Translations under genes and position numbers: made by a program
From: an uncultured virus (IMG/VR IMGVR_UViG_3300032093_000120)
Lineage: Duplodnaviria; Heunggongvirae; Uroviricota; Caudoviricetes
Virus record (IMG/VR): IMGVR_UViG_3300032093_000120
Length of the DNA stretch: 64,000 nucleotides
Strand: one strand, 5' to 3'
Notes under the pieces: model-generated
Seen by the model: only the letters and a program-made list of their open reading frames with translations
What the model was told of the DNA's origin: nothing
Database searches by the model: none
In this document: positions 1,192 through 60,644 of the stretch, in pieces
How positions within the stretch are numbered: position 1 is the first letter of the stretch
How the letters are laid out: the number at the start of each line of letters is the position of its first letter

Positions 1192-2261
1192 CACTAGCAG
1201 TAAACATCGCACAGAGTGGCTCAAACAACGTAACCTTCCGCAACCGCATCATCAATGGCGCTATGGTTATAAATCAGCGAAATACCGCTGTAAGCACTTC
1301 TGACACTTATACAGTTGACAGGTGGCAATTTGTGAAAACAAACGGGGCGACTGAATCAGCCGCTCAAAATACAGATGCGCCAGCGGGTTTTACTTATTCA
1401 TTAAGAAACACTATTTCTGTTGGGGATGGAAGTATCACTACTACTGAATTTAGCGGGTTTAAACAACCAATTGAAGGTTATAACGTAGCAGATTTAGGAT
1501 TTGGTACATCTAATGCACAAAATGTTACGGTTTCTTTTTGGGTTCGCTCTAGTGTTACAGGTCAATATACTGGCAATATATCAAATAGTAACTATACAAG
1601 GATGTGTCCTTTTAATTTCACCATTAACACCGCGAACACTTGGGAGTTAAAAACAAACACATTTCCCGGTGATACAACTGGAACTTGGAACACAACTACT
1701 GGTATAGGCATAAACCTTCAAATTTATTCTGCATTGGGTTCTACATACGCAAGCGGAACAGCCAATACATGGGGCAGTTCTGGTTCTAATTTTGGTTGTG
1801 GCTCTCCAGTTAACGGAATTGCTTCTAACGGAAATATTTTTGCTATTGCAGGTGTGCAACTAGAAGCAGGGACAACAGCATCCCCATTTGAGTATCGTCA
1901 GTATGGTACGGAGTTGGCTTTGTGTCAGAGATATTGTTACAAAATTGCAACTTCTGGTGGATATTCAACTTATGCAACTACGGGTATGTTTATAAGTACC
2001 ACTAGAGTAGACTTTCCTATTTTATTTCCTACATATATGAGGGCATCTCCAACAGGAACATATACAGCCGCAAACACATATTTACCATCAAGTGCTGGAA
2101 CAGATTTCACCCCATCTGCTGTTGCATCCGTATCGGGTTCTGCGTGTCCACAAGCAATTACAGTTACCTTTACAGTAAGTGGCGCAACTGCTGGAAGGGC
2201 GGCAACATTAACAGATTTAAGTTCAACAGCATCAAACATGATATTTAGTGCGGAGTTATAA
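1188..2261 (+). CDS. Tail fibre protein with carbohydrate-binding-like domain
   Basis: 'FRNRIINGAM.INQR..DRW', 'GVQLEAGTTASPFEYR.YG.ELALCQRY', C-terminal 'FSAEL'. Confidence 0.75.
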   Translation: MTLAVNIAQSGSNNVTFRNRIINGAMVINQRNTAVSTSDTYTVDRWQFVKTNGATESAAQNTDAPAGFTYSLRNTISVGDGSITTTEFSGFKQPIEGYNVADLGFGTSNAQNVTVSFWVRSSVTGQYTGNISNSNYTRMCPFNFTINTANTWELKTNTFPGDTTGTWNTTTGIGINLQIYSALGSTYASGTANTWGSSGSNFGCGSPVNGIASNGNIFAIAGVQLEAGTTASPFEYRQYGTELALCQRYCYKIATSGGYSTYATTGMFISTTRVDFPILFPTYMRASPTGTYTAANTYLPSSAGTDFTPSAVASVSGSACPQAITVTFTVSGATAGRAATLTDLSSTASNMIFSAEL

Positions 2262-2426
2262 ATGTATAAATTACACCTAAACCAAAGAACAAATCAAGAG
2301 TGTATGGTTCAGCGTTTGTCGGATAACGCTTACATCCCATTTGACCCAGACAACACCGACTACCAAGCCTACCTAAAGTGGATTAGCGAAGGCAACACAC
2401 CAGAACCCGCAGAGGAGAACCAATAA
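2262..2426 (+). CDS. Small tail fibre chaperone-like protein (54 aa, not in ORF track)
   Basis: Hand translation MYKLHL...IPFDPDNTDYQAYLKWISEGNTPEPAEENQ; abuts both neighbours. Confidence 0.7.
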   Translation: MYKLHLNQRTNQECMVQRLSDNAYIPFDPDNTDYQAYLKWISEGNTPEPAEENQ

Positions 2427-3124
2427 TGGCTTTAACACAAGTAGCAGGGGGGCTGATAGCCTCCGGACAAACAATAACAAGCCCAACTCTTGTAACCCCA
2501 GTACTTGGAACTCCTTCATCTGGTACTTTGACTAGTTGTACAGGTCTACCTTTAACTACTGGCGTAACCGGAACTCTCCCCGTTGCTAACGGCGGTACAG
2601 GCTCTACATCAACCACGTTCGTAAACGCGGCAACAAACGTAACAGGTACGCTCCCCGTTGCTAACGGCGGTACTGGAGCCGCAACATTAACTGCAAACAA
2701 CGTACTGCTGGGTAACGGAACAAGTGCACTGGCAACAGTAGCCCCCGGAGCAAACGGAAACATTCTCACTTCTAACGGCACTACTTGGGTTTCGTCTACT
2801 CCAGCAGGTGGCGGTGTTACATCTTTAAATGGACAAACTGGAGCGATTACAAATACATCTTTATATGCCATTGGAAGTTATGTTTTAGGAAGGTCATTAA
2901 CAGATGGTGCTATTGCACAAGACACAACACTTGCTGGTTCAAGTTTATATGTAATGTCTGCTGGTGTTTATTTAATTCCTCCTTCAAGTTGGGGTTCACC
3001 AGATGGAGGCACTTCTTCCACAGCACCAGTTTTGGTTAATACTGGAACATGGAGACTTTTATCACAAGCGGGAAACACAAGTGGTGGTAAAAGAATGTCT
3101 GGTTTATGGGTTCGCATTAGTTAA
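2426..3124 (+). CDS. Tail fibre protein
   Basis: Repeated 'VTGTLPVANGGTG' units, 'GVTSLNGQTG', C-terminal 'GTWRLL...LWVRIS'. Confidence 0.7.
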   Translation: MALTQVAGGLIASGQTITSPTLVTPVLGTPSSGTLTSCTGLPLTTGVTGTLPVANGGTGSTSTTFVNAATNVTGTLPVANGGTGAATLTANNVLLGNGTSALATVAPGANGNILTSNGTTWVSSTPAGGGVTSLNGQTGAITNTSLYAIGSYVLGRSLTDGAIAQDTTLAGSSLYVMSAGVYLIPPSSWGSPDGGTSSTAPVLVNTGTWRLLSQAGNTSGGKRMSGLWVRIS

Positions 3125-3136
3125 TAAAGAAAGATT

Positions 3137-3535
3137 ATGAATTATTCAAATGTATCAAGTGTGCAATGGGCAAATGCTGAACATACAGCCATTAATTGCA
3201 TGGTCAATTTTGACGATTTGCGTGAAGAATTAGTACCATTTACCGCAGTAGCACAGGGTGATTATCCGCATTCACATGAAATTTTTGCTCGTTGTGTGGC
3301 TGGCGATTTTGGTACTATTGCAGAATACATTCCGCCCCCACAGCCTACAACGGAACAGTTAGCCGCAATTATTCGTAGTCAGCGGGATAATCTTTTATTG
3401 CAATCCGACTGGACTCAACTACCAGACGTGCCACAGGCTACAAGAGACGCGTGGGCAAGTTATCGCCAAGCATTAAGAGATGTCACCGCTCAGGCGGGTT
3501 TCCCTCAAACAATAACATGGCCCACTGCGCCATAA
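3137..3535 (+). CDS. Phage tail fibre assembly chaperone
   Basis: 'IRSQRDNLLLQSDWTQLPDVP...WASYRQALRDV.AQ.GFP..I.WP..P' signature. Confidence 0.85.
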   Translation: MNYSNVSSVQWANAEHTAINCMVNFDDLREELVPFTAVAQGDYPHSHEIFARCVAGDFGTIAEYIPPPQPTTEQLAAIIRSQRDNLLLQSDWTQLPDVPQATRDAWASYRQALRDVTAQAGFPQTITWPTAP

Positions 3536-3541
3536 AAATAA

Positions 3542-4444: not shown

Positions 4445-4452
4445 GGTAAACC

Positions 4453-14872: not shown

Positions 14873-17800
14873 ATGCCAATTTACAAAATCCAAGCTCCTG
14901 ATGGAAACATCTACAGGATTGAAGGTCCCGCTGGCGCTAACCCAGAAGATTTGTTCCGCACCGTTGCCGAACAAAGACCTATGGCTGCTAAGACAACAGA
15001 GGAGTTGCAGGCAGAGAAGTCCGCACCTACCTCTATTAGTGACCTTGCACGCACCGCAGGCTCCAGCTTTGTTGGGGCAGGTAAATCATTGGTGGACGTA
15101 TTTGGTGCTGGTTCTGATATATCTAGTTACCTTGGCGATGTAGCCCAGAAACTTGAACAAGGTAAAACCCCAGAACGTTTGGCTGAGATGGCTCGCCGTG
15201 CCGAGTTGTCTAAACGTGCTGAGAAAGAAGGTACGTGGGCGCAAATTAAAAGTGGCTTGGCAGGTGTCGCAGAAGCCCCGCTTGAAAGTGTCGTTGGTGG
15301 CGTTTTTTCTTCCGCTCCAACTATTGCCGCAGGTGCCGCCGCCCTAGCCGCTTTACCTGCATCCGCCCCTGCCGCCATAGCCGTAGGTGTTCAACGTGCT
15401 AGTCGGATTTTGATGTCTGCCGCCCAAGGAACTGGTGAGGTCAAGGGTGACATCCATGAGTCAATTAAAAACGCATACAAAGAGAAAAACCCCAACATGC
15501 CGCCCGAAGAGGTGGAGCGTTTGGCAACTGAAGCACAGGCTTACACACTAAAGAACGCACCCCTATTAATTGGTGGTGCGGCATTTGGTGCAATAGATGC
15601 AGTTACAGGATTTGAGAAATCAACATCTCAAGCCCTCAAGAACGCACTTAGCCCTAACAAAACAGCGTTTACCAAAGAAGGCCTTCAGTCCGCTATTGCT
15701 AACCTACCCAAGAAGGCTGTGGAAGCACCGACCTATTTGGGACAAGCAGTTAAGACCGGTATTGGTGAATCTATCCCTGAGGGCTTACAGGGTGGTTACG
15801 GTCAGTTAGCCCAGAACGTGGCTATGTCTCAGGCTGGGTTTGAGACACCGACATTCCAAGGTGTGGCGGGTGCGGCGGCTAGAGATGCGCTAGTAGGTGC
15901 GTTGACCGGAACGGCAATGTCTCCTTTGAGTCATTCTGTTGCTAACGCTGAGTTCCAAGCGGACAAGTACTTACGGGGCGTTCAAGCCCAACAGCAGTTT
16001 GACAAAGAACGTGAAGAGTTTGCTAAGACCCAAGAGCAAACCAAAGAAAACCTTGGTGTAAACAAAACACTGATGCTGGGCTACGAGCCTCCAGCAGAGG
16101 AAGAGAAGTACACCAACCCAGCCGCAACTATTAAGAAGAACGAGTTGATGGCTGACGAGGTTAAGTTTGTAGATACCTACCGCAAACAAAACGGTCTGCC
16201 ACCGCTCAAGTCATATTCCATTGAAGACATAAAAGATGCGATGCCTAATGTTGACCCAGCGGGTGAACAAGGTCGTATTGATTCAATCCTAGCCGCCAAG
16301 TACGGCTACAAGCCTGTGGATGACAACACAGGTAAGCCAGTGAACTACACCGCTGATGACGTCATCTCTGCCGCTGAGGACGAGAAGAACGTTGCTACAG
16401 GCACTAAAGGGTTCAACGATTTCCTAACGCGCACTACAGGTTCTAGTGATTTAAACACTATGACCCAGCCGCAGTTGTTTGCTGCGTACTCTGCGATTAA
16501 ACAGATGCCTGAGTCCACAGAGAAGGTTATCCTTCCAGAGGGCACTGGTGCGTCTAGATTCACAGATAAGCAGTACAAGAAGGCTGTCAGTTGGTTTGGT
16601 CAGACCTTTGAGAGTGTTGACAACAAGCCTTTGTCGCGGGATACCATCATTGGCGACATTCAAGAGGCGACAGGGCTGGAACAGAAGCAAGATGCTGAAG
16701 CCCTTCTAGATACCGCAGTTAAAAACGGCGACTTGGCTGAGACCGAAGAAAGGGTTTTCAGAACCTATGACGCCAACGACAAACTTGTTTCAACGTACCG
16801 GGACAAGGAAAAGGCCGCCGCAGCGGCTAAAAAACAAGGTTTAAACGTTAGAGAAGAAACATTAAGACAGATGATGCCGCCACCAGCGGCAGAGCCAGCT
16901 AAACGCGCTAACCTCCCAGAGGGTTACGCCATGAGCAAGGAGACCATCAAAGAAGGTGAAGTCCCCGTTGGTTTTGACATCTTCCCAGAAGGTAAGGGTA
17001 AGGCTCTCTTTACCGTTCCCACATCAGAGGCGGTACAGGAAAAGATTGACCAACTCATCCCAGCCCGCAAGAAAGAAGCCGCACGCTATCTGTCTTACAT
17101 GGACAGAGACAAGGCTACTTTGCAAAAGGCAAGAGACAGTTTGGTCTCTATGGAAGCACGTGGCGAGGTAGGGTCACAGGCTTATGAACTTGCCAAGACT
17201 AAGTTAGCCAAGCAAGAGAGAGTGCTGGGCAACCGTATTCTCAAGAGCATGGAGCGTATTACGGATTACGAGCAACCGCTCATATCACGTCCGTCTGAGA
17301 AGAAGAAGCAAATCACCCGTGAGAAGATCACGGTAACTAAACAAGGTAAGTTCCTAGGTAGTTTCCCTGATAACGTCAAGGCACAGGAGGCTATCCTTGT
17401 CCAGATGTCGGATCAGGAACTGGCTGACACAGCGTCTGACGGTCGTCTTGGTGCGATTGCTGACCGTGCCGCCAAAGAGATTGAGCGCCGTAAGAGTCCC
17501 ACTGGCATCATGGTCAGACGCACTCCCAAAGCCAAGGAAGAGTTACCACCCCTATCCCCAGAACTCACCGCAGTTGCTGATGAGATTTCTAAGAAGTTAG
17601 TCCCCATTCTTCAGCGCATGGGGTTAGGCGATGTCGGGTTCAAGATTGTTCAGTCTATTAAGAACGGTGGAGAAGGCTCTTACACCAAGAACCTGATTCA
17701 GTTGGCTATTGATGCCGAGAAACCGCTGGAGGTTATGCACCATGAGTCCCTCCACGCACTGAAGGACTTAGGGTTCTTTACACCACAACAATGGTCTACC

Positions 17801-20800
17801 CTAGAGAACCAAGCACAGAAGTCTTGGATCACTAAGTACCTCAAGAACGTACAGGTTGAAGTTGAGATTGATGGCGTGAAGCAGACTATGTCTCGCTATG
17901 ACGCCTATGTGGCGTTGAAGTACACACCAGAAGACATTGTGGAAGAAGCAATTGCTGATGCGTTTGCTGACTTTGCTACCTCCAAGCCGCCGGGCGGAAT
18001 GATCGCTTCCATAATGAAGCGTTTAAACGACCTATTCAAGGCAATCAAGAATGCGTTTAACCGCAGCGGGTTTGAGTCCGCAGAGGACATCTTCACCAAA
18101 GCACAGCGCGGTGAGTTAAAGCCAAGCAATTGGAAGGCTACCCCAGAGGTTAAGGCTCAGGCCGATGCCTATGACCAACAAAACGGCATCCTCCCCTATA
18201 CCTCAGAAGGTCAGATCAAGATTCCGCTAGAAGGCGAAGGTCAGAAGCTGTCCCTCAAGAAGGCTTACAGCGAAAAAGATGTAGCCAGAGAACAGCGTAA
18301 ACAAGAGGCTGGCAAGAAGTTCAAGGTTTTAAAGAATGACCCAATCACTGGATTGCCTTTAAACCAAGACGGCACGGTAACCCTGTACTACCCCACCACA
18401 AATGAGGGCGCACGTGAACTGGCACGCACTAAGAAGTTAGTTGGACATAGCCCAACCGCTAACCGTATCTATCTAACCAATGAGTCTAGTGCGCCAGAAG
18501 TTGCTAAGAATCCAAGCATGATTGAACAGCCATTGGGTGGTGCAAATGTCATGTTGCAAATTGACCCATCTTTCCTTCATCCGTTGGAAGACCATGATAA
18601 AAGCGGTCGTAGGGATTTCTTCATCCCTATTGCTGAAGGTCAGGCATTTGCCAATAAGGCACGTTTAACCAAGCTGTTTACACTGGATGCGCCACGCACA
18701 AAAGGGCTGCATCCTGACCGCACTCTGGCTCAAGTCCAAGACGCCATCACTGACACGGTTGCTAAGTGGAAGAATGCATCTGCACAAGAACGCAGACTGA
18801 TGGCAAGTCAGGCTAAGGCAACGCTGATTGCCCAACACAACGTTACTAGATTGTTTGGTGCTAACTCTAAACTAGAGAAGACCAATATCGGTGACTACGG
18901 TTTGACTTTCAATGGTAAGAAGGTAATGTCTACAGGGCTGGGCTTTGCCTCGGCTCAAAAGATTAATGACCAACAACTTGCTAGTACATGTCCTAAGTCA
19001 GCCATCTGTGAGGCTCTTTGCCTTGGTGAGACATCAGGACAAAACTTGTTATATGGCGGCGAAGGCGAGTTCCGATCTGGCCCGCGCCTATCTCAGTACC
19101 TCAAGACTGAGGCGTTGATTGTTAACCCAGAAGCGTTTACGGTTGCCATGATCAGACAGATTGAGGCGTTCCGTAATGCAGCTAAGGCTGCTGGCAAAGA
19201 AGACGGCGAAGCGGGCTATCAACCTGCTATCCGTTTAAACGTTACATCTGACTTCAAACCTGCCACGTTTGAAGCCATCATTAACATGTTCCCAGATGTG
19301 ATGTTCTATGACTACACCAAGTTAGAGACAAAGCCGATCGCCCCTAACCACCACCTGACCTACAGTTCTACCGGTGCATCTCAAGTTGTTGGAAACAAAG
19401 TCATTTACAACAAAGAGTCCAACTGGGACAACATGGTTAAGAAGTTCCTGTCAAATGGCAAGAACGTGGCTATGGCGTTCACCAGCAGAAATGCTATGCC
19501 TAAGTTTGTTATGGATGAACGTACCGGAAAAACTTTTGAGGTGTGGAATGGTGATGAGTACGATGCTCGCTTCCTTGACCCATCACGTGAAGACGGTGCT
19601 GGATTGATCATTGGTCTAACCAACAAAGACAACACCACCAAACCAGAAGACGCTGCTGAGAAGCACAAAGGGTTCTTCTTGGACTACGACCCCGCACGTG
19701 ACGGCGACACCCTAATCATTCGTAACCAAGACAGTCTGAAGCCGGGTGCGCCAGTAGAGTTTAAACGCAAAGAAAAATTAAGCCTGCGTAGCGCACGGGG
19801 CATGTTTGAGGATGGCTTGATTCAAGAAGTTCCAAACTACAAGGGTAGAGAAAAGGTTATTGAATTACCTATCAAAGACTTCCTAAGACTTGCACAAGAG
19901 GGTGAAGTCAAGGGGAAGCAAAGTGATATTGAAGACCTGTTCAAAGCCGGCACAAAGTTAAATTCACTGCCTTTGTTGATGGCTTACAACAACCAAAAGG
20001 GTGACTTAAAGGTTCAGGGGCATGAGGGACGTCACAGGGCTAGAGCTTTACTTGGTCAAGGGTATGACACCATGCCCGTTAGATTCCTTACGAGCATTCG
20101 CTGGTCTGAACAAAACGACCCAACAAACTTTGATTATGAAAAGAATTGGCCTTCAAAAGTTATCTCTGAGGACAGCGATGACATAAGCATTCCCATGCCT
20201 GTATCCCGTGAGCAATCAATGGAGCCGTACAGCAGTGAGAAGTTAAGCCTACGCAAAGCACCTGATACACCAGCGTTTAAACGGTGGTTTGGCAAAAGCA
20301 AAATAGTCAACCCGGATGGAACGCCTAAGGTGATGTACCACGGAACGTCTAGGGATATAGGTGCGTTCAAGCCTAAACAGGCTGGCGCTATTTTCTTAAC
20401 TGATGATTCCGACTTTGCTGCGCGATTCTCCCAGCGATCAACTGATTTCATGTTGAATGAAATTGCCAAAGGTATAGATTCAAAACCAGACGAAAAGCGT
20501 GCTTTGATTACACGCTTGGTTGATGATGCAGTTGCCAACAAAAAACTGGCAACAAAAGAAAATTCCAACGGGCTGTTTGATACAACTAGAGAAGAGCATA
20601 TTGAAGAGTTTATGAATCGTCCGCTATCCCAATCAATGGGTACGGTCGGTATTGGTAATGCATTGACGCAAGAACTCTCTGATCGCATGCCTTCAGGTCA
20701 AAACATAATGCCTGTTTACGTAAAGGCTGAAAATACTTTTGATTACGAAAATCCTAGGCACATCAAAAAAATCATTGATCATTTCACAGAAATTGACAAT

Positions 20801-23800
20801 GACGATATAACATGGTTAAAAGCCGGAAATTGGGAAACAATTGAATCTGAGGGTGTCCAAGACGCTATTCAGTTTGCTGGGTTTGACAGTTTCTATGTAA
20901 AAGAGCACGGTCGCAAAAACCTTGCTGTTTACGAGCCAACCCAAATTAAGTCCGCTACTGGCAACCAAGGCACATTTGACATCAATGAACCTGATGTTCG
21001 TTTGAGCCTCAAGAAGGTTAACGAGTTATTTGACAAGGCAGAAGACATCCCTGAGTCAGAGGGTGTTGAGATCATCCGTAGCAACTGGATCGGTGGTGTA
21101 TCAGGCATTGGCGAGCGTGACTCAGCCTATGACTTGTACCGTGTAAACGGTGGCAAGAAATACATGAGCGCTGTTCAAGACTTAGTGCGTAAAGAACTTG
21201 GAGATAACTTCAAAGGCTACCGCCTGATGCATACCGACGAGTTGGAAGAGATACAGACTGGTGCTATGGGCAGTCAACTGGCATCCTTCACCTTGCGTCC
21301 TGACATTGCACAATCGTTTGCCAACTTAGCAACGTATAGCAAAGTTCCAAAAGACAAACTAAAAGTTGTTGAAATGGACTTAACTCCTGAGCATGTGTGG
21401 ATGGTTGGTCATCCTGCAGAGCAAGAGTTGGTCATTGATTACGGTCAGGGCTACAACCCATCAGCAGTTACTGAGTACAAAGAGAAACTCAGCCTACGTT
21501 CGCTGATGCCTGACCTGCGCAGCCAGCGCCAGCCGCCAGATTCTAAAGAGTTTAAACAGTGGTTCACTGGTAGTTACTTCACGTCCAACGGCGAGCCATT
21601 GATCATGTACCACGGCACTGCCCGTGACATCACCATATTCAGAGGCAAGCAAGCCAAGGCTATTTTCATTACCACTAATCCTGTGGTGGCTGAGAACTAC
21701 ACAGGCATGGGTGAGGACTACATGCGTGCTGAAGCCTATAAGGCTTTGACCCGTGATGAGAAGGCTGAACTCATTTCTGTTGTGGCTGAACAGGCCGAAC
21801 GTGATGGAACTATTAACAAAGACGAACTCAAAGAGATTCAAAAGAACCTCAAGAAGCGCGTGCCTGATCTCAAGAACCTGCCGTATCAGATTGAGGGCGA
21901 GATCATTGAGAGTTTAAACAACCTACTGCCTACACGCGGCAACATCATGCCCGTGTATGTCAACGCCAAGAATGTGTTTGACTACGCTAATCCTAATGAC
22001 GTGAATTTAGTCATGGACAGGCTTACCAACTACAGCAAGACATTAGGTAAAAAGGAAAACCCTGAGCAGTACTTAGCCGCTGTTAAGGGAATGATCTCCC
22101 GTGGCAACTGGCCTCGCATTGAAAGCCCTGAGGTACAAGAAGCGATCCGTGGTGCGGGCTTTGACGGGTTCTCCGTCCTAGAAGCCGGCACTAAGAATTA
22201 TGCCGTCTACAACCCGACCGCCATCAAGTCTGTTACAGGAAACATTGGAACGTATGGTTTGGGCGAGGTAAGCACTGAACAAGCCGCACAGTTTGGCATG
22301 ACAGCAGAGCAAGCCCGTCAGGCACAGGCAGAAGGTGACATCCGCCTCAGTCTGAAGAAAGTTCCTGTCGGCATCCCAGATAACGTTTGGAATTTACACA
22401 ACAGATATCAGGAAGCACAAGGCAACGTCGCTGAAGGCGAGATGGTCTCCCAGCGCAAGACGGCTGCAACCAAAGCGTTTAAACGCCTAAGTGATGCTGC
22501 AGAAGCGTATACAGGCAACGAACAAGACGCACTCAAGTTAATGCAAGAGATGAATGCCATCAGCGGTATTCGTCAGGCTATGGCTGAGGACGACAAGAGT
22601 GCGTTGGATACATACAAGGTTATGTCTCCCGCCCTGTGGCGTCAGGAAACCCGCGAGAAGTTAAGCCTACGTGCCGCCACTGCACCAGCCATGAATGCCG
22701 CAATTGACAGAACCACCTTTGTAAGGGAGGAAAAAGGTTTTGTTGAAAGGTTGATGGAAGCTATCTCTCCTCAGTCATGGTCTGACTTCCGTGCCAAGGC
22801 TTTGAACCGTTACAACGCTATGAGCGTGGCGGACAAGAAGCGTGCGCAGAAGATGGGTGGAGCCGCCCTCCTTGCTGACCAAAGCGCTGAATCAGCCGCA
22901 CTCATGTCTGATCTGTCAGCGGGTGTGACAGCCTCTGTCCTAGGTGTGCATGACCGTAACGGTGGTGCTCCGGTCTTCCGTAACGGTGTAACCACAGTTG
23001 ATGGAAGCATCAAAGGTCCCGTGGCTATCTTTGCTCCGTTGGCAAGATATGGTGACCCACGCATTTATCAGATGTGGCAGTTCTATGCTGGCGCTAAACG
23101 TGCCCGTAGATACTTCAAGGACGGTAAAGAGCAGAACTACACGCCAAGCGACATGGCCTACGCCGACCAGTTAGGCCAGCAGTACCCTGAGTTTAAACAG
23201 ATATTTGACGAGTGGAATGCATTCAACAACGCACTAGTCCAGTACCAAGTGGACACAGGTGTGCTCAGTAAAGAGCGTGCAGATGAATACCGCAAGTACT
23301 CAGACTACCTACCGTTCTACCGCCAGTTGGAAGACGAGGCAACCCTCGGTCCTAAGGTGTTCCAAAGCATCTCAGGCGTCAAGGGTCCTAAGAAGCTCAA
23401 AGGCTCAGAGGCTCCTATCGCTGACCTGATGGAGACCATCGTCCGTAACGTTCAGTCTGGCATCCAAGCCGGTATGAAGAACACAGCGGCTCAACGTGCT
23501 ATTAAGGTGTTTGAAGACATTGGTGAGGCTGTGCCTACCCACCCAACAGACACCGGACCCTCTACCGTGTATGCCTTGGTCAACGGTGAGAAGAAGGCCT
23601 ACATCGTTGCAGACCATGCGCTATACAACTCTATGCAGAGTTTAAACTTGCCTGAGTTGCCGTTCCTTGGCTTCTTCGCTGGTCCCGCTAACCTCTTGCG
23701 TAACCTAGTTACTAAAGACCCCGGATTCATGTTAGCCAACATGGTGCGTGACTCTATGTCTGCATGGGTAACTAGCGGAGTCAGCATGACCCCCGTAGCC

Positions 23801-31865: not shown

Positions 31866-32008
31866 CCCGTTTAAACGCACAAATATAACCAGCAGCGGCT
31901 CACCGGGTGACCCTTACCCCCGTTTAAACGCATAAATTCACACCCCGGAGGTAAAAGCGGCAATAAGTACTTGGCACGGGTATCACAGGTATCACCCGTT
32001 TAAACGCA
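31866..32008. repeat. Three direct copies of CCCGTTTAAACGCA
   Basis: Copies at 31866, 31919 and 31995. Confidence 0.9.
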
Positions 32009-32069: not shown

Positions 32070-32100
32070 TTGACACAACTTGAAATAATGTGTCTATAAT
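32070..32100 (+). promoter_or_regulatory. Rightward sigma70-type promoter TTGACA-N19-TATAAT
   Basis: TTGACA 32070-75, TATAAT 32095-100. Confidence 0.6.
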
Positions 32101-32107
32101 CAAAACC

Positions 32108-32205
32108 GTTGTCGTAGTGGACAGCAAATGGAAAGCCGTTTACTCATGCATCTGCTCCTGTTAAAGGGAGTCCACTACCGGATGCAGTAGTAAGCGGCTT
32201 TTTTT
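32108..32205 (+). ncRNA. Structured leader RNA with terminator and possible pseudoknot
   Basis: Stems 32132-44/32189-201 and 32147-52/32181-86 followed by a U-run; 32114-22 is complementary to 32170-78. Confidence 0.55.
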
Positions 32206-32491
32206 ATTGTCCCCACACAACCGTACTCCGCACGTTAGTAAGACTTCATCCTGAGGGCGCGGAAGAAAAGGGTACACGGTACGTCTATGACTAGGGGGCA
32301 GTTCCCGAACAATCCGTGCGACTGGTCTAATCATCAAGTCGGGGGCATACGGTTAAAAACCGTAGCATGATGATCCTGTTTAACAGGGGTGAAACACCTT
32401 CTCCTTCTTACTTCACGCTGTGGGGTAGGGGGGTCTTTGGGTGAAACAATGTGAATAGCCCCGCCAAGGGGCAATGACGAAGGAGTGACGC

Positions 32492-35753: not shown

Positions 35754-36007
35754 TACCTGCTGTGCGTTTAAACAGGGGGGGGGGGGGGGTGGGGTGATTC
35801 CTAGCATGCCCCCCGTCATGCTTTTCAAAAGTCCCCTTGGTAAACGTAGTCAAAACCAAGGGGGTTAGAAGTCAGTCACATCACCCACGCTAGACCTCCA
35901 ACTTATACCTGCTGTGCGTTTAAACGGTACTTCTGGCCGCTGCTGGATGCTGTTGGTGCGGCCTATTATGTTTAAACACTCAATCTGGCTTAAACACTCA
36001 ATCTGGC
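35754..36007. repeat. Repeat cluster: 20-bp direct repeat, G15 tract and 18-bp tandem repeat
   Basis: TACCTGCTGTGCGTTTAAAC at 35754 and 35906; G15 at 35775-89; TTAAACACTCAATCTGGC twice at 35972-36007. Confidence 0.9.
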
Positions 36008-38870: not shown

Positions 38871-40502
38871 TTATGCCACTAATTTGATTTTGCTGAATGC
38901 CACTGACCCGATGCTGTGAACATCACGCACGGTCACGTTGTGCTTGTATACGTTGGATACGTTTTGCTGTATGCCCAAGCCTATGGTTGTGATGCCAAGG
39001 TTTTCGCCTGAGTTAACTTGTGCCTTGGTCTCATCGACATTGCCTTCACCATCAGTCAACACAAAGCAAACCTTACGCTGTGCTGAGTGACCGTGCAATA
39101 ACTCATGGGCATAGCGCACTGCAAAGTAATCGTTGGTGCATCCGCCCGAACCAGTGTGACGTAATGCATCGATGGTCTTCTTTGCGTTGTCGCTGAACTT
39201 CTTAGCCACGCCCACTTCATCACCAAATGTCAGCAGTGCTGTATCGACACCCGCTTTGCTGAGTGCATCCAACAGGGATGCGCATGCGTTGATGGCGCAC
39301 TGCATGGGTGAGTTAGGCAAGTCGCTGATGAACATTGACTGTGATACATCCAACACAATCACCACTGCAGAGTCGATACCTTCAACATCTAACCTACGTT
39401 TAAACACACGGTCATTACCCTGTGGCACGGAATGCAAAGCATTGACGTTCAACGCACCCGCCTTGCGCTTAGGTTGGTACTCGCTTGTGCCTGTATTCTC
39501 AAAGAGTTTACGCACCTCATAACGTAACTTAGCACCCACGTTCACGTCAGCCTTGAACTGTGGATTACGGCATGCATGCCCACGCTTGGTGATACCGTTG
39601 GCTTTAGAGTACGTGCCCTGTGCTTGTGTTCCCTCAGGGGCTTTAGACATTGGCTCTACTGGGCGTGCCTTGCAAATGTCACCGTCTTTTTTCACTGGTG
39701 AACATGCCTTGCCTGTGGGCTTAGGACGGTCAGTAGTACCCTCACCCTCACCCTGTGCCTGATCGTCGCTTGTAGACCCCTTCTCGTCGGTCTGAGCACC
39801 ATTGCCTTGCCCCTGTCCCTGACCTTTGCCCTGACCGTCAGGGTTGCCATCCGATGGCTTGTCGCTGTCACCCTTGGGTTGTGGGTTTTTGTTGTCGATG
39901 TTTTGCAGTTGATCAAATACCCACACTGCGATAGCCAATGTGTCGAATGAATTTTGGACAGTGGTAAGACGTGCGCATGCAACGTCAAATATTGGTTGCA
40001 ATCCCTCAGCCAAGGGTAACTTCACGGTTGCGTGCTTGCGTGCATAGACAGCCAACAGGAAGGGGTAGCGTGCGGGGTGATGCCACTTGTCATCCCAACC
40101 AACCAGTGCATCAGTGCTCATGCCATCGATCACGCTAGACAAGAGACCCTCAGCATTACCGACTAGACCCTGTGCAATACATGTGTTCTCAATCCATGCG
40201 TCCTCAATAGCGTTGTGCAATTGATCGATGTACTGGTTGTCACCACGTGCGTTGAAGTCGGTGTACTTACGGTGCAACAACTCATGCAAGATAAATGCAA
40301 CGTACTTGTCAAAGGTCTTGCGATCAATGATGGCGTCATCTGCCACGTTAGCCAACTCAATGTCACCACGTGCATTGATGCGTGCTGTAGTGACCTCAGT
40401 CCATGACACCGTCACTTGTGGCAGTGCCAACTCAGAACATAACTTGTGGCATGCACCGTCAATTGCGATGCGGAATTCATAACCGTTTAAACGTGCTTTC
40501 AT
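38871..40502 (-). CDS. CobT-like protein: N-terminal HExxH domain, low-complexity linker, C-terminal vWA domain
   Basis: 'LHELLH..YT...NAIEDAWIE', G/D/Q linker, MIDAS 'DVSQSM', 'LTDGEG'. Confidence 0.85.
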   Translation of the reverse strand: MKARLNGYEFRIAIDGACHKLCSELALPQVTVSWTEVTTARINARGDIELANVADDAIIDRKTFDKYVAFILHELLHRKYTDFNARGDNQYIDQLHNAIEDAWIENTCIAQGLVGNAEGLLSSVIDGMSTDALVGWDDKWHHPARYPFLLAVYARKHATVKLPLAEGLQPIFDVACARLTTVQNSFDTLAIAVWVFDQLQNIDNKNPQPKGDSDKPSDGNPDGQGKGQGQGQGNGAQTDEKGSTSDDQAQGEGEGTTDRPKPTGKACSPVKKDGDICKARPVEPMSKAPEGTQAQGTYSKANGITKRGHACRNPQFKADVNVGAKLRYEVRKLFENTGTSEYQPKRKAGALNVNALHSVPQGNDRVFKRRLDVEGIDSAVVIVLDVSQSMFISDLPNSPMQCAINACASLLDALSKAGVDTALLTFGDEVGVAKKFSDNAKKTIDALRHTGSGGCTNDYFAVRYAHELLHGHSAQRKVCFVLTDGEGNVDETKAQVNSGENLGITTIGLGIQQNVSNVYKHNVTVRDVHSIGSVAFSKIKLVA

Positions 40503-40512
40503 TGTGTGCTCC

Positions 40513-42006
40513 TTAGATGTTGTTGGAGATTAGGGTTTGATCGATAGTCGCTGTGAAGATGGCATCCAATGCGGTAGCCGACTCGCTAGGCTGACGGTTA
40601 GCCACTGCGGTGTCCCATGCATCACGCACTGACAAAACCTTTAGCGATTTGATAAAGGCGATCACACTGCGGATCGATGGTGCGTCCACTATGTCGGCAG
40701 TCTGTACCTTGGCACGTGCCACACGTATTGACTTGAGCACATGGGTTGCTAGTTCCTTGGTGCACCCAGTGTGGCGCATGACAGCGTCAACCTCAGCGGT
40801 AAGGGGTAGGTATTCCATGCGCACCACTTGCGCAAAGCGATCCATCAATGATGAATTCATATTGCGTGTGCCTGTATAGCGTCCTGACTCGTCACCGTTA
40901 CCGAACGTGTTGTCAGCACCGAACACCAGTACACCATTGGCGCGTGTGTGCACACTGCCACCGTAGGAGACTGCAGAATTTGGCTCTAGAAAACCGTTAA
41001 GGGTAGCCAACTCACCCGCATCAGCGTTAGTCACTTCATCCAACAGGAGCACAGTAGAGGGGTGCGTAAAGCCCATCAGGAAGTCACCTTTGACGAACAC
41101 GGTCTCACCGTTGACAAGACCAGTAGCACCCGCATAGTCTTCACACGTGGTGTACTTGTGGAAGTTGATGCGTTTAAACGCACGTCCTGTGCGGGCGCAG
41201 AACTGACGGACTGACTCGCTCTTGCCTGTGCCCTTCTCACCGCCAAGCCACACGTTGTCACCGTTGATGTCAGCCAACAGGAAGTGGCGCAAGACCTTCT
41301 CAGTCCACACAAAAAACGGATCGATGGCGGGGGCAGAGGGGTCATTCCACATGCGCACCATGACAGGGTTGCCCTTAGGATCACGCACGTCAACACCGAA
41401 CACGTCCGATGCTGACTTGGTCTCAGTGCTATACACCGATGCAAGGTCAGCGACTACAGCCTGTGCCCCGACAGCATCGACAGCCTGTTTAAACGGTGCG
41501 AATGCATCAGCCACAACGGTGTTCACCGCACGTGCAATGGCGTCATCGTCAAGGTTGACAGCCCCGATGCTGTGCTCTGCCTTGTCAAGGCGGGAAAGCA
41601 ATTTGCCCACGGTCTTGTTGATGGCGATCACCGCATCGTTGACCGAACCGATTTTGCCCAGTGCGTCCTGATGCACGTCATTGGCTTTTTGCATTGCGTC
41701 CAAGGCTGTGCTTTCCGCACGTGATGCGACAGCGGACGTGGCTTGCACCGTGGCGGACAGTGCGTTGTCCACAGTGGTAGTTGGGGCAGTGGGGCTGTAA
41801 GGGGTAGCACCCTTAATTAATTGAATGCCCTGATCAGGGTTAGCGTGGTAACTGGCGATCACCCAGTCAGTCAGCGTGTCGATCTCCTGTATAGGAGACA
41901 TGATGGTGTGTGCGTTGATTCCAAGTGCGCTCAATGCCCCCTTGCGGATGGGCATAGGGATGCGGGAGATTTCGGTGCGGATGGTGTTGCGTGTAGATGC
42001 ATTCAT
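40513..42006 (-). CDS. CobS/MoxR-like AAA+ ATPase
   Basis: Walker A 'GEKGTGKS', Walker B 'LLLDE', 'ADNTFGNG..GRY.G', 'SLMDRF'; likely start MNASTRN. Confidence 0.88.
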   Translation of the reverse strand: MNASTRNTIRTEISRIPMPIRKGALSALGINAHTIMSPIQEIDTLTDWVIASYHANPDQGIQLIKGATPYSPTAPTTTVDNALSATVQATSAVASRAESTALDAMQKANDVHQDALGKIGSVNDAVIAINKTVGKLLSRLDKAEHSIGAVNLDDDAIARAVNTVVADAFAPFKQAVDAVGAQAVVADLASVYSTETKSASDVFGVDVRDPKGNPVMVRMWNDPSAPAIDPFFVWTEKVLRHFLLADINGDNVWLGGEKGTGKSESVRQFCARTGRAFKRINFHKYTTCEDYAGATGLVNGETVFVKGDFLMGFTHPSTVLLLDEVTNADAGELATLNGFLEPNSAVSYGGSVHTRANGVLVFGADNTFGNGDESGRYTGTRNMNSSLMDRFAQVVRMEYLPLTAEVDAVMRHTGCTKELATHVLKSIRVARAKVQTADIVDAPSIRSVIAFIKSLKVLSVRDAWDTAVANRQPSESATALDAIFTATIDQTLISNNI

Positions 42007-42020
42007 TTGTATTACTCCAA

Positions 42021-42620
42021 TTAAACTAGGGTCAAGACGTCTTGATCGACAGGGCAAGAGGGCAAACCATAGGACGCCCACTTAGAAGACAGGCGCACGG
42101 TGTAGCCACAGGATGGGCACTCAGCCTTTAGCATGCGTGTGCCTTGTTTTTTCTTACCGTTAGAGAATGCCAACTCAGCGTGGGGGTATGCACCCAGTGA
42201 GTCGATGATTGCCCCGTAGGCTTGATCAAACCCGTTAGCCCCTTGCGTGTAGCCCCATGCATTCTTACGTGTGGGGTTGACAGGCTCTAGGAGCATGGCT
42301 GATGCGATCTTTTGGAAGTTGATGCCGTGATTGAATCCCCCCTTGGCGGTGTGGCACAACTCATGTACCAACACTTCAAATACTTTGCGAGGGTCAGCGA
42401 TGACAGGGGAGATAAGGATTTCGTAATGCTTGTCGGCACTGGCAGTGTCGATCCAACATTCACCAATAGCGTTGTTGCGCTTGGCATGTAGGGGAAAGCC
42501 ACAAGTAAGGCGGACTTTGTCGGGCAGTATTGACCCTGCAATTTCAAATGCGGGGCGCAGTTCGTTGTATGCAACGGTGAGCCACTCTTCACGTGTGGCG
42601 TGGACGGTAGGTAAGGTCAT
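42021..42620 (-). CDS. SprT-like zincin metalloprotease with C-terminal Zn ribbon
   Basis: 'TREEWL', 'IGECW', 'LVHELCH', 'TRMLKAECPSCGYTVR...GLPSCP'. Confidence 0.75.
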   Translation of the reverse strand: MTLPTVHATREEWLTVAYNELRPAFEIAGSILPDKVRLTCGFPLHAKRNNAIGECWIDTASADKHYEILISPVIADPRKVFEVLVHELCHTAKGGFNHGINFQKIASAMLLEPVNPTRKNAWGYTQGANGFDQAYGAIIDSLGAYPHAELAFSNGKKKQGTRMLKAECPSCGYTVRLSSKWASYGLPSCPVDQDVLTLV

Positions 42621-42975: not shown

Positions 42976-43005
42976 ATTGTAATACTGTCTGTCAAACCAT
43001 GACAA
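42976..43005 (-). promoter_or_regulatory. Leftward early promoter TTGTCA-N18-TACAAT
   Basis: ATTGTA 42976-81 and TGACAA 43000-05 on the + strand. Confidence 0.55.
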
Positions 43006-43255: not shown

Positions 43256-43318
43256 TTATCCACACTATCCACAATCAGGCTGTTAATAACAGGAAGTTAT
43301 CCACACCCATGTTGATAA
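43256..43318. promoter_or_regulatory. DnaA-box cluster
   Basis: TTATCCACA at 43256 and 43297, CTATCCACA at 43265, reverse TTATCAACA at 43310. Confidence 0.6.
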
Positions 43319-44057: not shown

Positions 44058-44317
44058 ACGTGGCATGTCGCTGACCCACCGTGCCCCGACCCCCCGCGCC
44101 ACGCATTGGGTCCCCCCCTCACGTATACGCTCTAATCCACTCCCACAATTACATGCCCCCTACCCCTGTGAACGTTCTCATCCCTGCCACACCTGCTTCA
44201 CGTGAAACACACCCCCCGGTATGTCGTCAAAACGGAAATGGGTGGGGGTATATATATTTGTTTAAACATAGTTGCGAAGAAGCGCAGCGTATCGCAAAAC
44301 ACATGTGTAAACGGGGG

Positions 44318-44346
44318 TTGCGAACGTTCGCATAATCGTTTAAACT
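44318..44346 (+). promoter_or_regulatory. Promoter TTGCGA-N17-TAAACT with a 14-bp palindrome
   Basis: TGCGAACGTTCGCA (44319-32) overlaps the -35; GTTTAAAC (44338-45) overlaps the -10. Confidence 0.5.
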
Positions 44347-56929: not shown

Positions 56930-56931
56930 TC

Positions 56932-57360: not shown

Positions 57361-57369
57361 GAGCTAAAA

Positions 57370-57558
57370 ATGGATAAAGCAGATTTAAAACAAGACAAAA
57401 AAATGATTGCTAGTGCAGTGCATAAGCATGAAAAAAGGTTACATCAAGGCATGGCTCCAACCAAGTTTAAAAACGGTGGAGTAGCCGGCGTGTCTGGAGA
57501 AGCAATGAAAGCGGTAGGCCGCAACATGGCACGTGCAAACAACCAAAGAGGTCGTTAA
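57370..57558 (+). CDS. Small basic protein
   Basis: AGGAG RBS; 'FKNGG' motif. Confidence 0.55.
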   Translation: MDKADLKQDKKMIASAVHKHEKRLHQGMAPTKFKNGGVAGVSGEAMKAVGRNMARANNQRGR

Positions 57559-57559
57559 T

Positions 57560-57838
57560 ATGGCTAAATTTAGTATGAAACAAGGTGGCAAAGAAGTTGG
57601 CCCAGCCAGCGTCTATGCTAAACCACACACCATGTCTGGCAAAGCCTCAGGCTCAGACATTGCGTACAAAAAAGACCCTAACAACATGTCTGCCGAGCAG
57701 TCTACCCCCGGTGGTATGCCGTCTAAGCGAGTGAGTGCTGGCAACCCAGCAAACACCAACACTAAGACTACCGGCATCAAGATGCGTGGTACAGGTGCGG
57801 CGACTAAAGGCGTGATGTCACGCGGACCGATGGCATGA
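57560..57838 (+). CDS. Small basic protein
   Basis: Likely start MAKFSMKQGG; ends 'RGTGAATKG..SRGPMA'. Confidence 0.55.
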   Translation: MAKFSMKQGGKEVGPASVYAKPHTMSGKASGSDIAYKKDPNNMSAEQSTPGGMPSKRVSAGNPANTNTKTTGIKMRGTGAATKGVMSRGPMA

Positions 57839-58539
57839 CCTATACGGAATTAATAACAGCGATTCAAACGTATACAGAAAATACGTTTCCCGCCACCACC
57901 TTGGCGGATAGCACAGTTGTGTCTTCAACGACGCAATTGAATCGCTTTATTACTCAGGCTGAACAGCGTATATACAACTCTGTTCAGTTTCCGTCTTTGC
58001 GCAAGAACGTGACAGGTAGCGTGACTTCCGGCAATAAGTACTTATCTGCCCCCGAAGATTACTTGGCTACCTACTCTCTGGCTGTGATTGATGCCACAGG
58101 AAACTATGAGTACCTGCTAAACAAGGATGTGAACTTCATCCGTCAGGCGTATCCCAATCCAACCACGGACACAGGCCTTCCTAGATACTACGCACTGTTT
58201 GGTCCAACTGTTAACACCAGCACAATTACCAATGAACTCTCTTTCATTGTGGGACCGACGCCTGATGCGTCTTATTCTGTGGAACTGCATTACTACTATT
58301 ACCCCGTGTCAATCACTGTTGCAGCCTCTGGTCAGACTTGGCTGGGCGATAACTTTGACACAGTCCTCTTGTATGGCTCACTTGTTGAAGCGTATACCTA
58401 CATGAAGGGCGAGGCAGACATGATTGGCTTGTACGACACCAAGTACAAGGAAGCACTCGCATTGGCTAAACGCCTTGGAGATGGAATGGAGCGTCAGGAT
58501 GCTTATCGTTCTGGTCAATTTAGGCAGGCGGTGACTTGA
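57835..58539 (+). CDS. Head-tail adaptor-like protein
   Basis: 'MTY.EL..AIQ.YTEN', 'FI.QAE.RI', 'GPTPD..Y.VELHY', 'LLYGSLVEA..YMK'. Confidence 0.65.
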   Translation: MTYTELITAIQTYTENTFPATTLADSTVVSSTTQLNRFITQAEQRIYNSVQFPSLRKNVTGSVTSGNKYLSAPEDYLATYSLAVIDATGNYEYLLNKDVNFIRQAYPNPTTDTGLPRYYALFGPTVNTSTITNELSFIVGPTPDASYSVELHYYYYPVSITVAASGQTWLGDNFDTVLLYGSLVEAYTYMKGEADMIGLYDTKYKEALALAKRLGDGMERQDAYRSGQFRQAVT

Positions 58540-58982
58540 TGGCTTTTACGGGTAACTTCACCACCAATACATTTTTAATTGGACTGCTAGACGGTGCATT
58601 TGATTTTGGTACTGGTACTTCTCAGGTATATAAGATTGCCTTGTACACCAACGCTGCCACGCTAGATGCGACCACCACAGCCTACACAAGCACAGGCGAA
58701 ACCTCTGGCGGTAACTATGCGGCTGGTGGGCAGGTGTTAGCCGTATCTCAAGTTCCAACAATTGGAAACCAAACAGGCGCGGCAACCGCGTATCTGTCTT
58801 TTACAAACGCTGCATGGACAGGTGCAATCACCGCAAGAGGTGCGTTGATTTACTTGGCTAATGGCACAACAAACCCCGCCGTATGCGTGCTGGATTTTGG
58901 CTCAGACAAGTCCAGTGCTAATACATTCACCGTACAATTCCCGGCAGTCACTAACACGTCTGCAATCATCCGCATCTCATAG
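58536..58982 (+). CDS. Tail structural protein
   Basis: 'KIALYT..ATL.A.TTAY', 'ARGALIY', 'VLDFG.DK'. Confidence 0.6.
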   Translation: MMAFTGNFTTNTFLIGLLDGAFDFGTGTSQVYKIALYTNAATLDATTTAYTSTGETSGGNYAAGGQVLAVSQVPTIGNQTGAATAYLSFTNAAWTGAITARGALIYLANGTTNPAVCVLDFGSDKSSANTFTVQFPAVTNTSAIIRIS

Positions 58983-58990
58983 GAGAAACC

Positions 58991-59590
58991 ATGCATAAAG
59001 AACAATCCGGTTTTGGCGATAACGCTGTAGCCACACTGCAAGCAAACGCATCCATCCCTGAGGGAATGGGAGTAGAGGGCTACTATCATGTAGAGTGCCG
59101 TGACGCACAGGGTAACCTCAAGTGGGACGAAGAGTTTCCTAACTTGGTCGTTGCCGTTGGTAAAGAGTTGTTGTTGGACACCTTGCTCCGCACATCTGGT
59201 ACATACACCACTGTTGGCCCGTTCCTTGGTCTGATTAACAATAGCACTACCTTTGCAGCCGCAGACACCATGACTTCTAAGACATGGACTGAGTTGACTA
59301 CCTACACCGTGGGCGGTTCAGCAGTGCGCGGTACAGCAGTATTTGCAGCGGCTAGTTCATCTGGTCTAACTCCATCAAACGTCACTACGTCAACGGCTAC
59401 GGCTATCACCTACACAATGACAGGTTCTGCTACTGTGTATGGATGTTTCTTGGTGACAGGTACTGGCGCAGTCAGCACAATCTCTAGCACTGCGGGTACT
59501 TTGTACTCAGAAGGCAACTTCAGCACTGCCAAGACTGTTACATCTGGCGATACCGTAACTGTTACTTACTCTACTACCGCGACTTCTTAA
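58991..59590 (+). CDS. Tail structural protein
   Basis: 'G.Y.VEC.D..GN.KW....NLVV..G', T-rich. Confidence 0.55.
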   Translation: MHKEQSGFGDNAVATLQANASIPEGMGVEGYYHVECRDAQGNLKWDEEFPNLVVAVGKELLLDTLLRTSGTYTTVGPFLGLINNSTTFAAADTMTSKTWTELTTYTVGGSAVRGTAVFAAASSSGLTPSNVTTSTATAITYTMTGSATVYGCFLVTGTGAVSTISSTAGTLYSEGNFSTAKTVTSGDTVTVTYSTTATS

Positions 59591-59600
59591 GGAGTCTTAA

Positions 59601-60644
59601 ATGGCTCTAGCCCTCAATGACCGGGTACAACAGACTGGCACAGCCAACACCACGGTAAGTTTTACCTTATCTGGCTCTGTCACGGGCTTTCAATCCTTTG
59701 CCGTCGTTGGCAACGGGAATACGACTTACTATTCTTCCTTTGATGCTACGGGCAACTGGGAAGTTGGTATTGGCACGTATTCAACTACTGGCCCTACGCT
59801 CACGCGCACAACCATTCTGGCCTCCAGTAACTCTGGAACAGCGGTCACGTTTAGCGGCACAGTCAATGTCTTTGTAACTTACCCATCTGAGAAATCCGTC
59901 AACCTAGACGCATCTGATAACGTCAGTGCGTTGGGTACAGTGTCTTCTGGTACTTGGCAAGGTACAACTGTAGGCGTGGCTTATGGCGGCACGGGCGTAA
60001 CTGCTTCTAGTGGTGCTAACTCGGTGATGCTGAGAGATGCTAACCAGAACGTATCCATCAACCGTTTAAACCAATCCAACACAGCGACATCAGCGGCGGG
60101 CGGTACAACAGCCCTGACTGCGGCTTCTAGTTACTCACAGACATTGAACGGCACGGGCAACCAGACCTACACAATGCCTGACGCTACCACCCTGACTACA
60201 GGCGTAGCATTTGAGTTCAACAACAATGCAACTGGCACACTGACTCTCCAAGACTATGCGACTGGTGCTATTGGCACGGTTGCCTCTGGTGGTGCGGTTG
60301 AGCTTGTACTGCTATCTAACGGTACGGTTGGCGGAACATGGGACGTACACGGATACATTCCAGAGAACATAACTTGGGGCACTAACGCACTAAACCTTGG
60401 CTCTACGGTCATCACGGGTGGCACTTGGAACGGCGGCACTATTGCTAGTAACTATGGCGGTACAGGGCTTACAAGTTACGCCGCTGGTGACATGCTCTAT
60501 TACACATCTGGCACTGCGCTGTCTAAAGTAGGTATTGGTGCTAACGGATATATTTTGACTTCTAACGGCAGTGCGCCAACGTGGGCAGCAAATGCAAGTG
60601 CTTCAGTTGACCAAGCGTACTACCTAGCTTTTATGATGGGATAA
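59601..60644 (+). CDS. Tail fibre-like protein
   Basis: 'DRV..T', 'WEVG.GTY', 'L.R.T.L.SSN', 'VFVTYP', GGTG repeats. Confidence 0.65.
   Translation: MALALNDRVQQTGTANTTVSFTLSGSVTGFQSFAVVGNGNTTYYSSFDATGNWEVGIGTYSTTGPTLTRTTILASSNSGTAVTFSGTVNVFVTYPSEKSVNLDASDNVSALGTVSSGTWQGTTVGVAYGGTGVTASSGANSVMLRDANQNVSINRLNQSNTATSAAGGTTALTAASSYSQTLNGTGNQTYTMPDATTLTTGVAFEFNNNATGTLTLQDYATGAIGTVASGGAVELVLLSNGTVGGTWDVHGYIPENITWGTNALNLGSTVITGGTWNGGTIASNYGGTGLTSYAAGDMLYYTSGTALSKVGIGANGYILTSNGSAPTWAANASASVDQAYYLAFMMG

Follow-up and report, generated by a model that had tools for sequence, protein, structure and literature searches.

The uncultured Caudoviricetes virus IMGVR_UViG_3300032093_000120 is represented by a 64,000-nt stretch of DNA (the window), which holds most of a podovirus-like phage genome, with genes for terminase, portal, capsid, primase-helicase, a 3,446-aa polyvalent protein, and tail fibres. 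Dispersed over positions 1457..60071 is an array of the palindromic octamer GTTTAAAC (with its variants, the word), and at 42021..42620 on the minus strand lies a gene for a 199-aa protein that combines an SprT/Wss1-like zincin domain with a C-terminal zinc ribbon, the putative reader of that word.

An octamer array selected at the DNA level

The array comprises exactly 50 copies of GTTTAAAC, agreeing position for position with the initial annotation, which had claimed at least 50, together with 15 copies of the one-letter variant GTGTAAAC and six of ATTTAAAC (either strand), all of them putative binding sites; CGTTTAAACG occurs 15 times. The runner-up among palindromic 8-mers reaches five copies, and Markov-type models predict 1.09 (order 0), 1.45 (order 2), or 3.3 (order 3) copies of GTTTAAAC. 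The expectations at order 5 (21.5) and order 6 (41.3) are circular because 50 of the 76 TTTAAA hexamers sit within GTTTAAAC. Thirty-seven copies lie wholly within open reading frames (ORFs), compared with a mean of 3.7 (maximum 10, 500 shuffles) after within-gene synonymous shuffling, and they take up 37 of the 53 protein-compatible places in two frames (xLN, 16 of 27; xFKx, 21 of 26). Eleven of the 50 are wholly non-coding, in a window of which 4.8% is non-coding. In a relative with 77% nucleotide identity, 30 of the 34 sites that can be aligned are retained against a background of 19%, and relatives near 70% identity keep 2/9, 2/6, and 1/6, yet have sites of their own. The excess over synonymous shuffles and the retention in relatives therefore indicate that the word is selected on the DNA, and that density matters more than position. 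The array is real and the signal is at the DNA level, as had been proposed.

Conservation of the flanks drops to background past ~1-2 bases, which delimits the site as an 8-bp palindrome. Its variant GTGTAAAC is also enriched in the window (15 vs. 2.4 expected) and is the main word of some other phages; palindromy is not essential to the word. Other palindromes are avoided (AGCT, 49 vs. 236 expected; CCATGG, 0 vs. 20.6 expected), and over the whole window there is strong avoidance of AGCT, GGCC, CGCG, CCATGG, TCATGA, GGTACC, and GGCACC, pointing to a host population with many restriction systems.

The overall density of GTTTAAAC is 0.78 per kb, with 1.45 in the early region, 1.0 in the ejection and giant genes, and 0.37 in the terminase-head-tail region; the tail-fibre modules, previously described as nearly word-free, indeed hold one copy in ~13.6 kb. 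A 497-bp repeat with 17 mismatches (1-497 and 63504-64000) covers the starts of two tail-fibre genes, and because of these mismatches between two fibre genes the window is not an exact wrap. The position of this repeat in a fibre-module run almost devoid of GTTTAAAC suggests recent module exchange.

Co-occurrence of the word with an SprT-like gene

A gene family co-occurring with the motif, as the initial annotation had envisaged, was found in the homologs of 42021-42620, which are present in 164 phage records; 21 named phages were examined. Viral loci related by terminase are enriched for GTTTAAAC, GTGTAAAC, or ATTTAAAC in 75 of 80 cases, one subgroup favouring ATTTAAAC, and the four cultured phages with the nearest terminases have neither word enrichment nor the SprT-like gene. 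Among 88 window ORFs, 42021-42620 is the only one present in all of the first 13 unrelated named phages. The candidates originally put forward, namely the mini-LexA (44532), the Arc-like protein (28441), the helix-turn-helix (HTH) protein (29106), and the giant protein, drop out, with no homolog at E<1e-3 in any of the 13. These phages were chosen by the SprT-like gene itself; therefore, the converse test, on loci chosen by the word, carries the weight.

Nine of the 13 carry the word: Microdon (43 copies), Zeta1847 (22), Yang (20), R5C (17), 4A (14), Alexa (8), ECO1230-10 (5, a weak carrier with 1.0 expected), Persinger (4), and Mano (4). The 13 can be split in this way because the motif K-Q-x-T-R, which in an alignment precedes the C-terminal zinc ribbon, is present only in the carriers and not in the four non-carriers. 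Eight further phages obey the same rule, with 17 words in Emotion, 17 in Maureen, 16 in Percival, and 7 in Arya, which have the motif, and 0 in Dismas, 0 in BAjuniper, 1 in LK3, and 1 in FP1, which do not; this second set was fetched after the rule had been seen. Altogether, QxTR accompanies 4-43 sites in 13 of 13 named phages and its absence 0-1 sites in eight of eight. Four of the QxTR-less genomes were scanned and no alternative shared word was seen in them.

Sampling by the protein alone gave 160 loci, and words were counted for the 120 distinct zinc ribbons whose loci span 6 kb or more. These loci hold 639 words (31 expected), with at least one in 117 of the 120 (25 expected), and the reversed control word occurs 47 times (72 expected). 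Taken one by one, loci that are 8 kb or longer reach significance in 41 of 55 viral and 30 of 67 chromosomal cases. Sampling by the word alone, through a word pair, yielded 76 new loci with flanks among the matches listed (47 further loci were left out), and 72 were counted, four second loci of the same contig having been dropped. The gene is present in 31 of the 45 enriched loci and in none of the 27 non-enriched ones (Fisher 1.4e-9), and none of nine non-enriched whole records has it. To judge from these sequences, the word and the SprT-like gene travel together across unrelated phages and integrated elements. In one set of alphaproteobacterial elements (L292, L293, L295, L298-L300, L305, L309, L314, L316, L325), the gene is accompanied by only about two GTTTAAAC in 20 kb, one of them ~0.9-1.4 kb upstream, and there are several copies per genome; these are probably small integrative elements rather than phages.

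In three Actinomycete chromosomes, the word is confined to the surroundings of the gene. They have 18 sites in 38 kb around it vs. 5 in the rest (9.1 Mb), 26 in 40 kb vs. 4 in the rest (8.2 Mb), and 12 in 47.5 kb vs. 2 in the rest of 6.4 Mb, respectively. A fourth genome has 12 sites on one 28-kb contig, and in a fifth, for which site positions are only partly listed, the word count is below that of the control word. The word-dense segments of 38-48 kb are presumed prophages, and the word would thus outline prophages of the SprT-gene type. Among 81 genomes sampled within the order to which a freshwater betaproteobacterial bin belongs (the claim stands without the unpublished G051, one of the set), the word nowhere exceeds 0.04 per kb and in most genomes is rarer than the control word; one of them, a 2.0-Mb bacterial genome (G090), has 82 GTTTAAAC vs. 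24 control words. Phages of the same host, Microbacterium foliorum, differ completely, with 16 words in Percival (QxTR) vs. 0 in Dismas (no QxTR). The array is not explained by host k-mer bias, and the word is bounded to the gene-bearing element. The shuffles, the element-bounded sites, the 81-genome survey, and the retention of sites are in line with the earlier suggestion of a genome-wide protein-binding mark rather than a host bias.

The zinc-ribbon protein and its predicted operators

The 42021-42620 protein matches PHROG 6361 (E 3e-40) and consists of the zincin domain (residues ~5-150), a linker, and the ribbon (residues ~155-199; 42021..42158, minus strand), which has the pattern KKQGTR..CxxC..R..W..C. 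The zincin site is formed by HELCH at 86-90 (H86, E87, H90) and a third histidine, H98, and the PF10263 score of 22.2 bits is below the cut-off of 25.6. An AF2 model has a pLDDT of 91, and the N-domain matches the folds of abylysin (4jiu, Z 7.6), Wss1 (5xbn, Z 7.5, rmsd 3.2, 102 aligned), and SPRTN (6mdx, Z 7.2, rmsd 4.1, 100 aligned), with all three Z under 8. No solved chain matches the protein by sequence at E<0.1, Foldseek gave no match at E<=0.001, and ESM Atlas matches are all under 0.9, with one PF17283 lead at 0.77. The protein contains no HTH or S24 peptidase domain. Folded alone, the ribbon has a pLDDT of 60; longer fusions of it were looked for and none was found, which is weak evidence. 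The family comprises 2,971 clusters at 50% identity (E<=0.001).

All four invariant columns of an 84-sequence alignment (R162, C168, R176, C189) fall in the ribbon. HExxH is absent in 24 of 250 loci (including three ribbon-only loci and one sequence with Ns), and by parsimony on a 54-row tree it was lost eight times (at least six forced; one row has Ns). Most HExxH-less loci keep arrays, two chromosomal ones having only 1-2 sites, and the three loci with only a ~55-aa ribbon have 15-40 sites, including the densest array seen, 40 sites in 15.8 kb. Site density is 1.8 per kb for protease-dead forms vs. 0.67, a difference that we do not claim because it is confounded by how the loci were found. 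Across these homologs, the word follows the zinc ribbon and not the protease site. The invariant columns, and the retention of the ribbon in protease-dead and stand-alone homologs with dense arrays, suggest that the ribbon is very probably the part that reads the word. No residue code distinguishing GTTTAAAC from GTGTAAAC was found by eye across the ribbon alignment. QPTR accompanies ATTTAAAC in one lineage only; the other proline-bearing ribbon sampled (KAPTR, L070, 6.3 kb) is accompanied by three GTTTAAAC and one ATTTAAAC.

A homodimer model reached an ipSAE of 0.65 in three runs vs. 0.01 for the best control, with contacts agreeing by at least 63% and pLDDT of at least 83; the mark used was attained for 20 of the 30 solved homodimers and for 1 of the 23 single chains. 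The catalytic residues and the ribbon both lie apart from the modelled interface, which belongs to the N-domain. In protease-dead homologs, the interface residues stay conserved (0.81), more so than other conserved positions (0.52) or the catalytic ones (0.17). We infer a dimerisation domain that would carry two DNA-reading ribbons.

All promoters discussed here are predictions from sequence. A sigma-70-type promoter (TTGCGA, 17 nt, TAAACT; 44318..44346, plus strand), whose boxes are read directly and whose function is predicted, precedes the mini-LexA-terminase operon. The GTTTAAAC at 44338 overlaps its -10 box (44341), and GTGTAAAC at 44305 is just upstream. Of 80 terminase loci, 55 hold GAACGTTC, and in 53 of these the family word follows it by 7-18 nt, overlapping or adjoining the -10 box of the pre-terminase promoter or, where the -10 differs, directly behind it. 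The palindrome TGCGAACGTTCGCA occurs in the promoter before the mini-LexA gene (44319-44332 and 44170); all 55 loci with GAACGTTC have the mini-LexA, which is present in 72 of the 80. We regard the TGCGAACGTTCGCA/GAACGTTC palindrome as a candidate mini-LexA operator, distinct from GTTTAAAC.

The reader gene belongs to the leftward early operon, whose predicted promoter (42976..43005, minus strand) is not overlapped by any site in this genome. In ten named phages (Yang, Microdon, Persinger, ECO1230-10, Alexa, Mano, Emotion, Maureen, Percival, and Arya), the predicted -10 box of the own-gene promoter bears the word or is closely followed by it, and in the lineage of protease-dead and stand-alone forms the word is placed between -35 and -10. 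The word is near the gene start in Zeta1847, 389 bp from the gene in R5C, and ~630 bp in 4A. A site is present no more than 150 bp upstream of the gene in 19 of 91 protein-picked loci (5.3 expected). Between the leftward early promoter and terS are two exact DnaA boxes (TTATCCACA; 43256-43305), and relatives have 2-4 such boxes at the same place. The cluster may be a host-DnaA origin or a growth-state sensor, since no DNA polymerase was found in the window.

A proposed repressor role and its alternatives

We favour, at a probability of about 55%, an autoregulated dimeric repressor with scattered, stoperator-like sites, transcriptional repression being its main job. Its first part, that the 42021-42620 protein binds the word, is much the firmer one and very likely from the co-occurrence data. 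The word would be the operator of this protein; the N-terminal SprT-like domain would dimerise, as modelled, and hold two zinc ribbons, each reading one half-site of the 8-10-bp (pseudo)palindrome. The dimer would repress the sigma-70-type promoters that it overlaps, that is, its own-gene promoter in many phages and the predicted pre-mini-LexA/terminase promoter here, and dozens of intragenic sites would damp read-through transcription genome-wide, as in a stoperator array. Lysogeny or a carrier state might thereby be held, or the lytic programme timed, and the protease site would be accessory, perhaps a switch that inactivates the repressor.

According to the available text of a preprint on cluster AZ phages (10.1101/2025.05.26.655371), these phages are temperate with no known repressor, and Liebe, which carries a frameshift in the SprT-like gene plus three other changes, forms clear plaques, while Maureen is turbid; neither TAAAC, TTTAC, nor operator appears in its main text as available. 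The accessible portion of PMC7302621 describes EH phages and Zeta1847 as turbid, with no repressor found. The reader is possibly the missing immunity repressor of both clusters, a concrete candidate for which Liebe and Maureen are a natural mutant pair. More generally, a large phage protein family that lacks annotation is here matched to one particular DNA word and reading domain, and repression, if true, would mean that genome-wide operator arrays arose a second time, from a non-homologous source. The near-identity of the word across phyla predicts cross-repression between unrelated phages. In the literature searched, whose coverage excluded most subscription papers, we found no report of the word or of the word-gene pairing.

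Among the closest parallels to such an array are the stoperators of Cluster A mycobacteriophages (L5, Bxb1, TipsytheTRex), for which the accessible parts of PMC6550527 and PMC9283540 report 20-30 or more sites genome-wide. As there, many sites (here 50) would belong to one phage protein, few at promoters, by predicted overlap, and most not. However, stoperators are described as 13-14 bp, asymmetric, oriented with transcription, and divergent between subclusters, whereas the word is an 8-bp (pseudo)palindrome that is nearly the same across several phyla, having no orientation as a palindrome and, in its asymmetric variant, a mixed one in most genomes; and their reader is a monomeric protein with HTH and Stoperator domains, in contrast to a zinc ribbon on a zincin domain in a modelled dimer. 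The HTH proteins of the window do not co-occur with the word. By analogy, the array may work as stoperators do, but it does not belong to that class by site length or protein family. CI/LexA-type repressors join an HTH domain to a serine peptidase dimerisation domain by a flexible linker and have an operator on their own promoter, with few operators in all. The reader would, by the model, similarly link a putative DNA-binding domain to a protease-fold dimerisation domain, with a predicted own-promoter operator in other phages, though not in this genome; it differs in its zincin and zinc ribbon, reversed domain order, and dozens of putative operators. Cleavage of the lambda and P22 repressors is mentioned in the available text of PMC9283540.

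Several observations weigh against the repressor. The sites in the window miss the reader gene's own promoter, the nearest (43352) being 386 bp from the start site, and sites are no closer to gene starts than by chance (8 vs. 7.0). The asymmetric variant is not consistently oriented with transcription (12/10, 14/6, 25/18, 7/6, 8/7), unlike stoperators; in some AZ-like genomes its orientation is biased (15/3, 14/6; Emotion 15/2 by strand), which codon constraints could explain. The eight QxTR-less phages represent two lineages only, 37 of 67 chromosomal loci are not significantly enriched, and 14 of the 45 word-rich loci lack the gene; whole-record searches of 11 of these 14 found the gene in one, the other ten being fragments with a completeness of 13-35%. 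The protease usually matters, since 226 of 250 loci have an intact HExxH. The conservation figure for the modelled interface includes two positions that the selection pattern had fixed. A scan of 79 ORFs of the window revealed no integrase, and none is annotated in Microdon 22-53 kb despite 43 sites; thus, lysogeny cannot be the whole story. Finally, one word across phyla is odd for an immunity repressor, a class that usually diversifies.

The main rival, which we consider possible but clearly less likely, is that the same protein binds the word in order to protect phage DNA. Dimers every 1-5 kb would cut or block host proteins on incoming DNA (restriction translocases, silencers, SMC-type defences), and self-repression would merely match the protein level to genome copy number. 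In five unrelated phages, spacing is more even than expected at random (Yang, CV 0.44, and Microdon, CV 0.53, with 0 of 5000 simulations as low; R5C, P 0.015; 4A, P 0.028; Alexa, P 0.04), yet this would suit transcription roadblocks too, and in the window and three close relatives the sites are clumped (CV 1.19-1.45), with one 9.4-kb site-free stretch in the window. Protection would also fit the coverage of whole integrated elements, the turnover of site positions at persisting density (2/9, 2/6, and 1/6 kept near 70% identity), arrays in phages without integrase, and the strong avoidance of restriction-type palindromes in the window; conserved sites on promoter boxes of other operons and the Liebe phenotype suit repression better. 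It also draws on the resemblance of the N-domain to Wss1 and SPRTN (Z 7.5 and 7.2), with which it shares the HExxH..H motif and, by a structural match of middling Z, the zincin fold, as with SprT-like PF10263 and the 'SprT-like protease' of cluster AZ (available text of 10.1101/2025.05.26.655371). SPRTN is DNA-structure-specific in the accessible text of PMC7534798, unlike a family that tracks a sequence word and has repeatedly lost its catalytic site. A precedent for such a guard is ArdC of plasmid R388, which, in the available part of PMC7213743, also joins DNA binding to an SprT-like metalloprotease domain whose activity is dispensable for anti-restriction, but it binds single-stranded DNA without sequence specificity and through an N-terminal domain, unlike the C-terminal ribbon here. 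About as likely is a cross-phylum version in which phages and integrated elements would tile their DNA with the word to station the dimeric zinc-ribbon protease every 1-5 kb, where it would cut proteins acting on that DNA; its targets would be host defence motors during infection and, during lysogeny, RNA polymerase or a sigma-like activator. If true, this would amount to proteolysis directed by sequence to sites on a genome, and versions that act only sterically would have evolved repeatedly where sites are dense.

An organising role, in which the protein coats or loops the genome for episome replication or partition and affects transcription secondarily, is improbable. The dimer model, the coverage of whole elements, the lack of a DNA polymerase or integrase among the genes found in the window, and the conserved DnaA-box cluster (43256-43305) would agree with it, and MatP is an organiser that acts from dispersed matS sites; however, a stand-alone ribbon without dimerisation domain goes with the densest arrays, operator positions recur, and many carriers integrate or encode their own polymerase. 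Least probable is that the array reflects a factor or word bias of the host (HIP-like, methylation, recombination, or uptake signal), the gene link being incidental. The word-rich genome among the 81 would favour this, but the low densities in those genomes relative to the window and the bounding of the word to gene-bearing elements count against it, and the all-or-none Percival-Dismas contrast largely refutes it.

HIP1, which had been named as the cellular analogue, is a poor one: in the available text of PMC4390886 and PMC5861425 it is likewise a hyper-abundant selected octamer in and between genes, but it is chromosome-wide and tied to methyltransferases, whereas the word is limited to mobile elements, accompanies a phage gene, and also exists in non-palindromic variants. 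The idea of a modification or nicking mark found no support, and no methyltransferase was found among the 79 window ORFs. The word does not contain GTWWAC, which speaks against methylation at that motif, and its flanks do not fit a DnaA box.

The window has other notable features. The primase-helicase operon is preceded by a promoter-like TTGACA..TATAAT (32070-32100, 19-nt spacer), and upstream of this element are three non-coding sites in a repeated context (31869..32005). Between the element and the operon are ~390 non-coding bases with inverted repeats (32100-32490), a possible origin or leader RNA. Three further non-coding sites (35766..35977) mark the convergent end of the primase-helicase and leftward early operons, a junction with a duplicated 20-mer and, next to a site, a run of ~14 G followed by TGGGG (35775-35796). 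Directly downstream of the reader gene is a MoxR-type AAA+ ATPase and VWA pair (38871-42081), kept in four relatives and not in unrelated word carriers. The 3,446-aa polyvalent protein (14873-25213), behind a DNA-ejection gene, has four ART-PolyVal stretches and GP88 and LPD38 domains and is probably injected.

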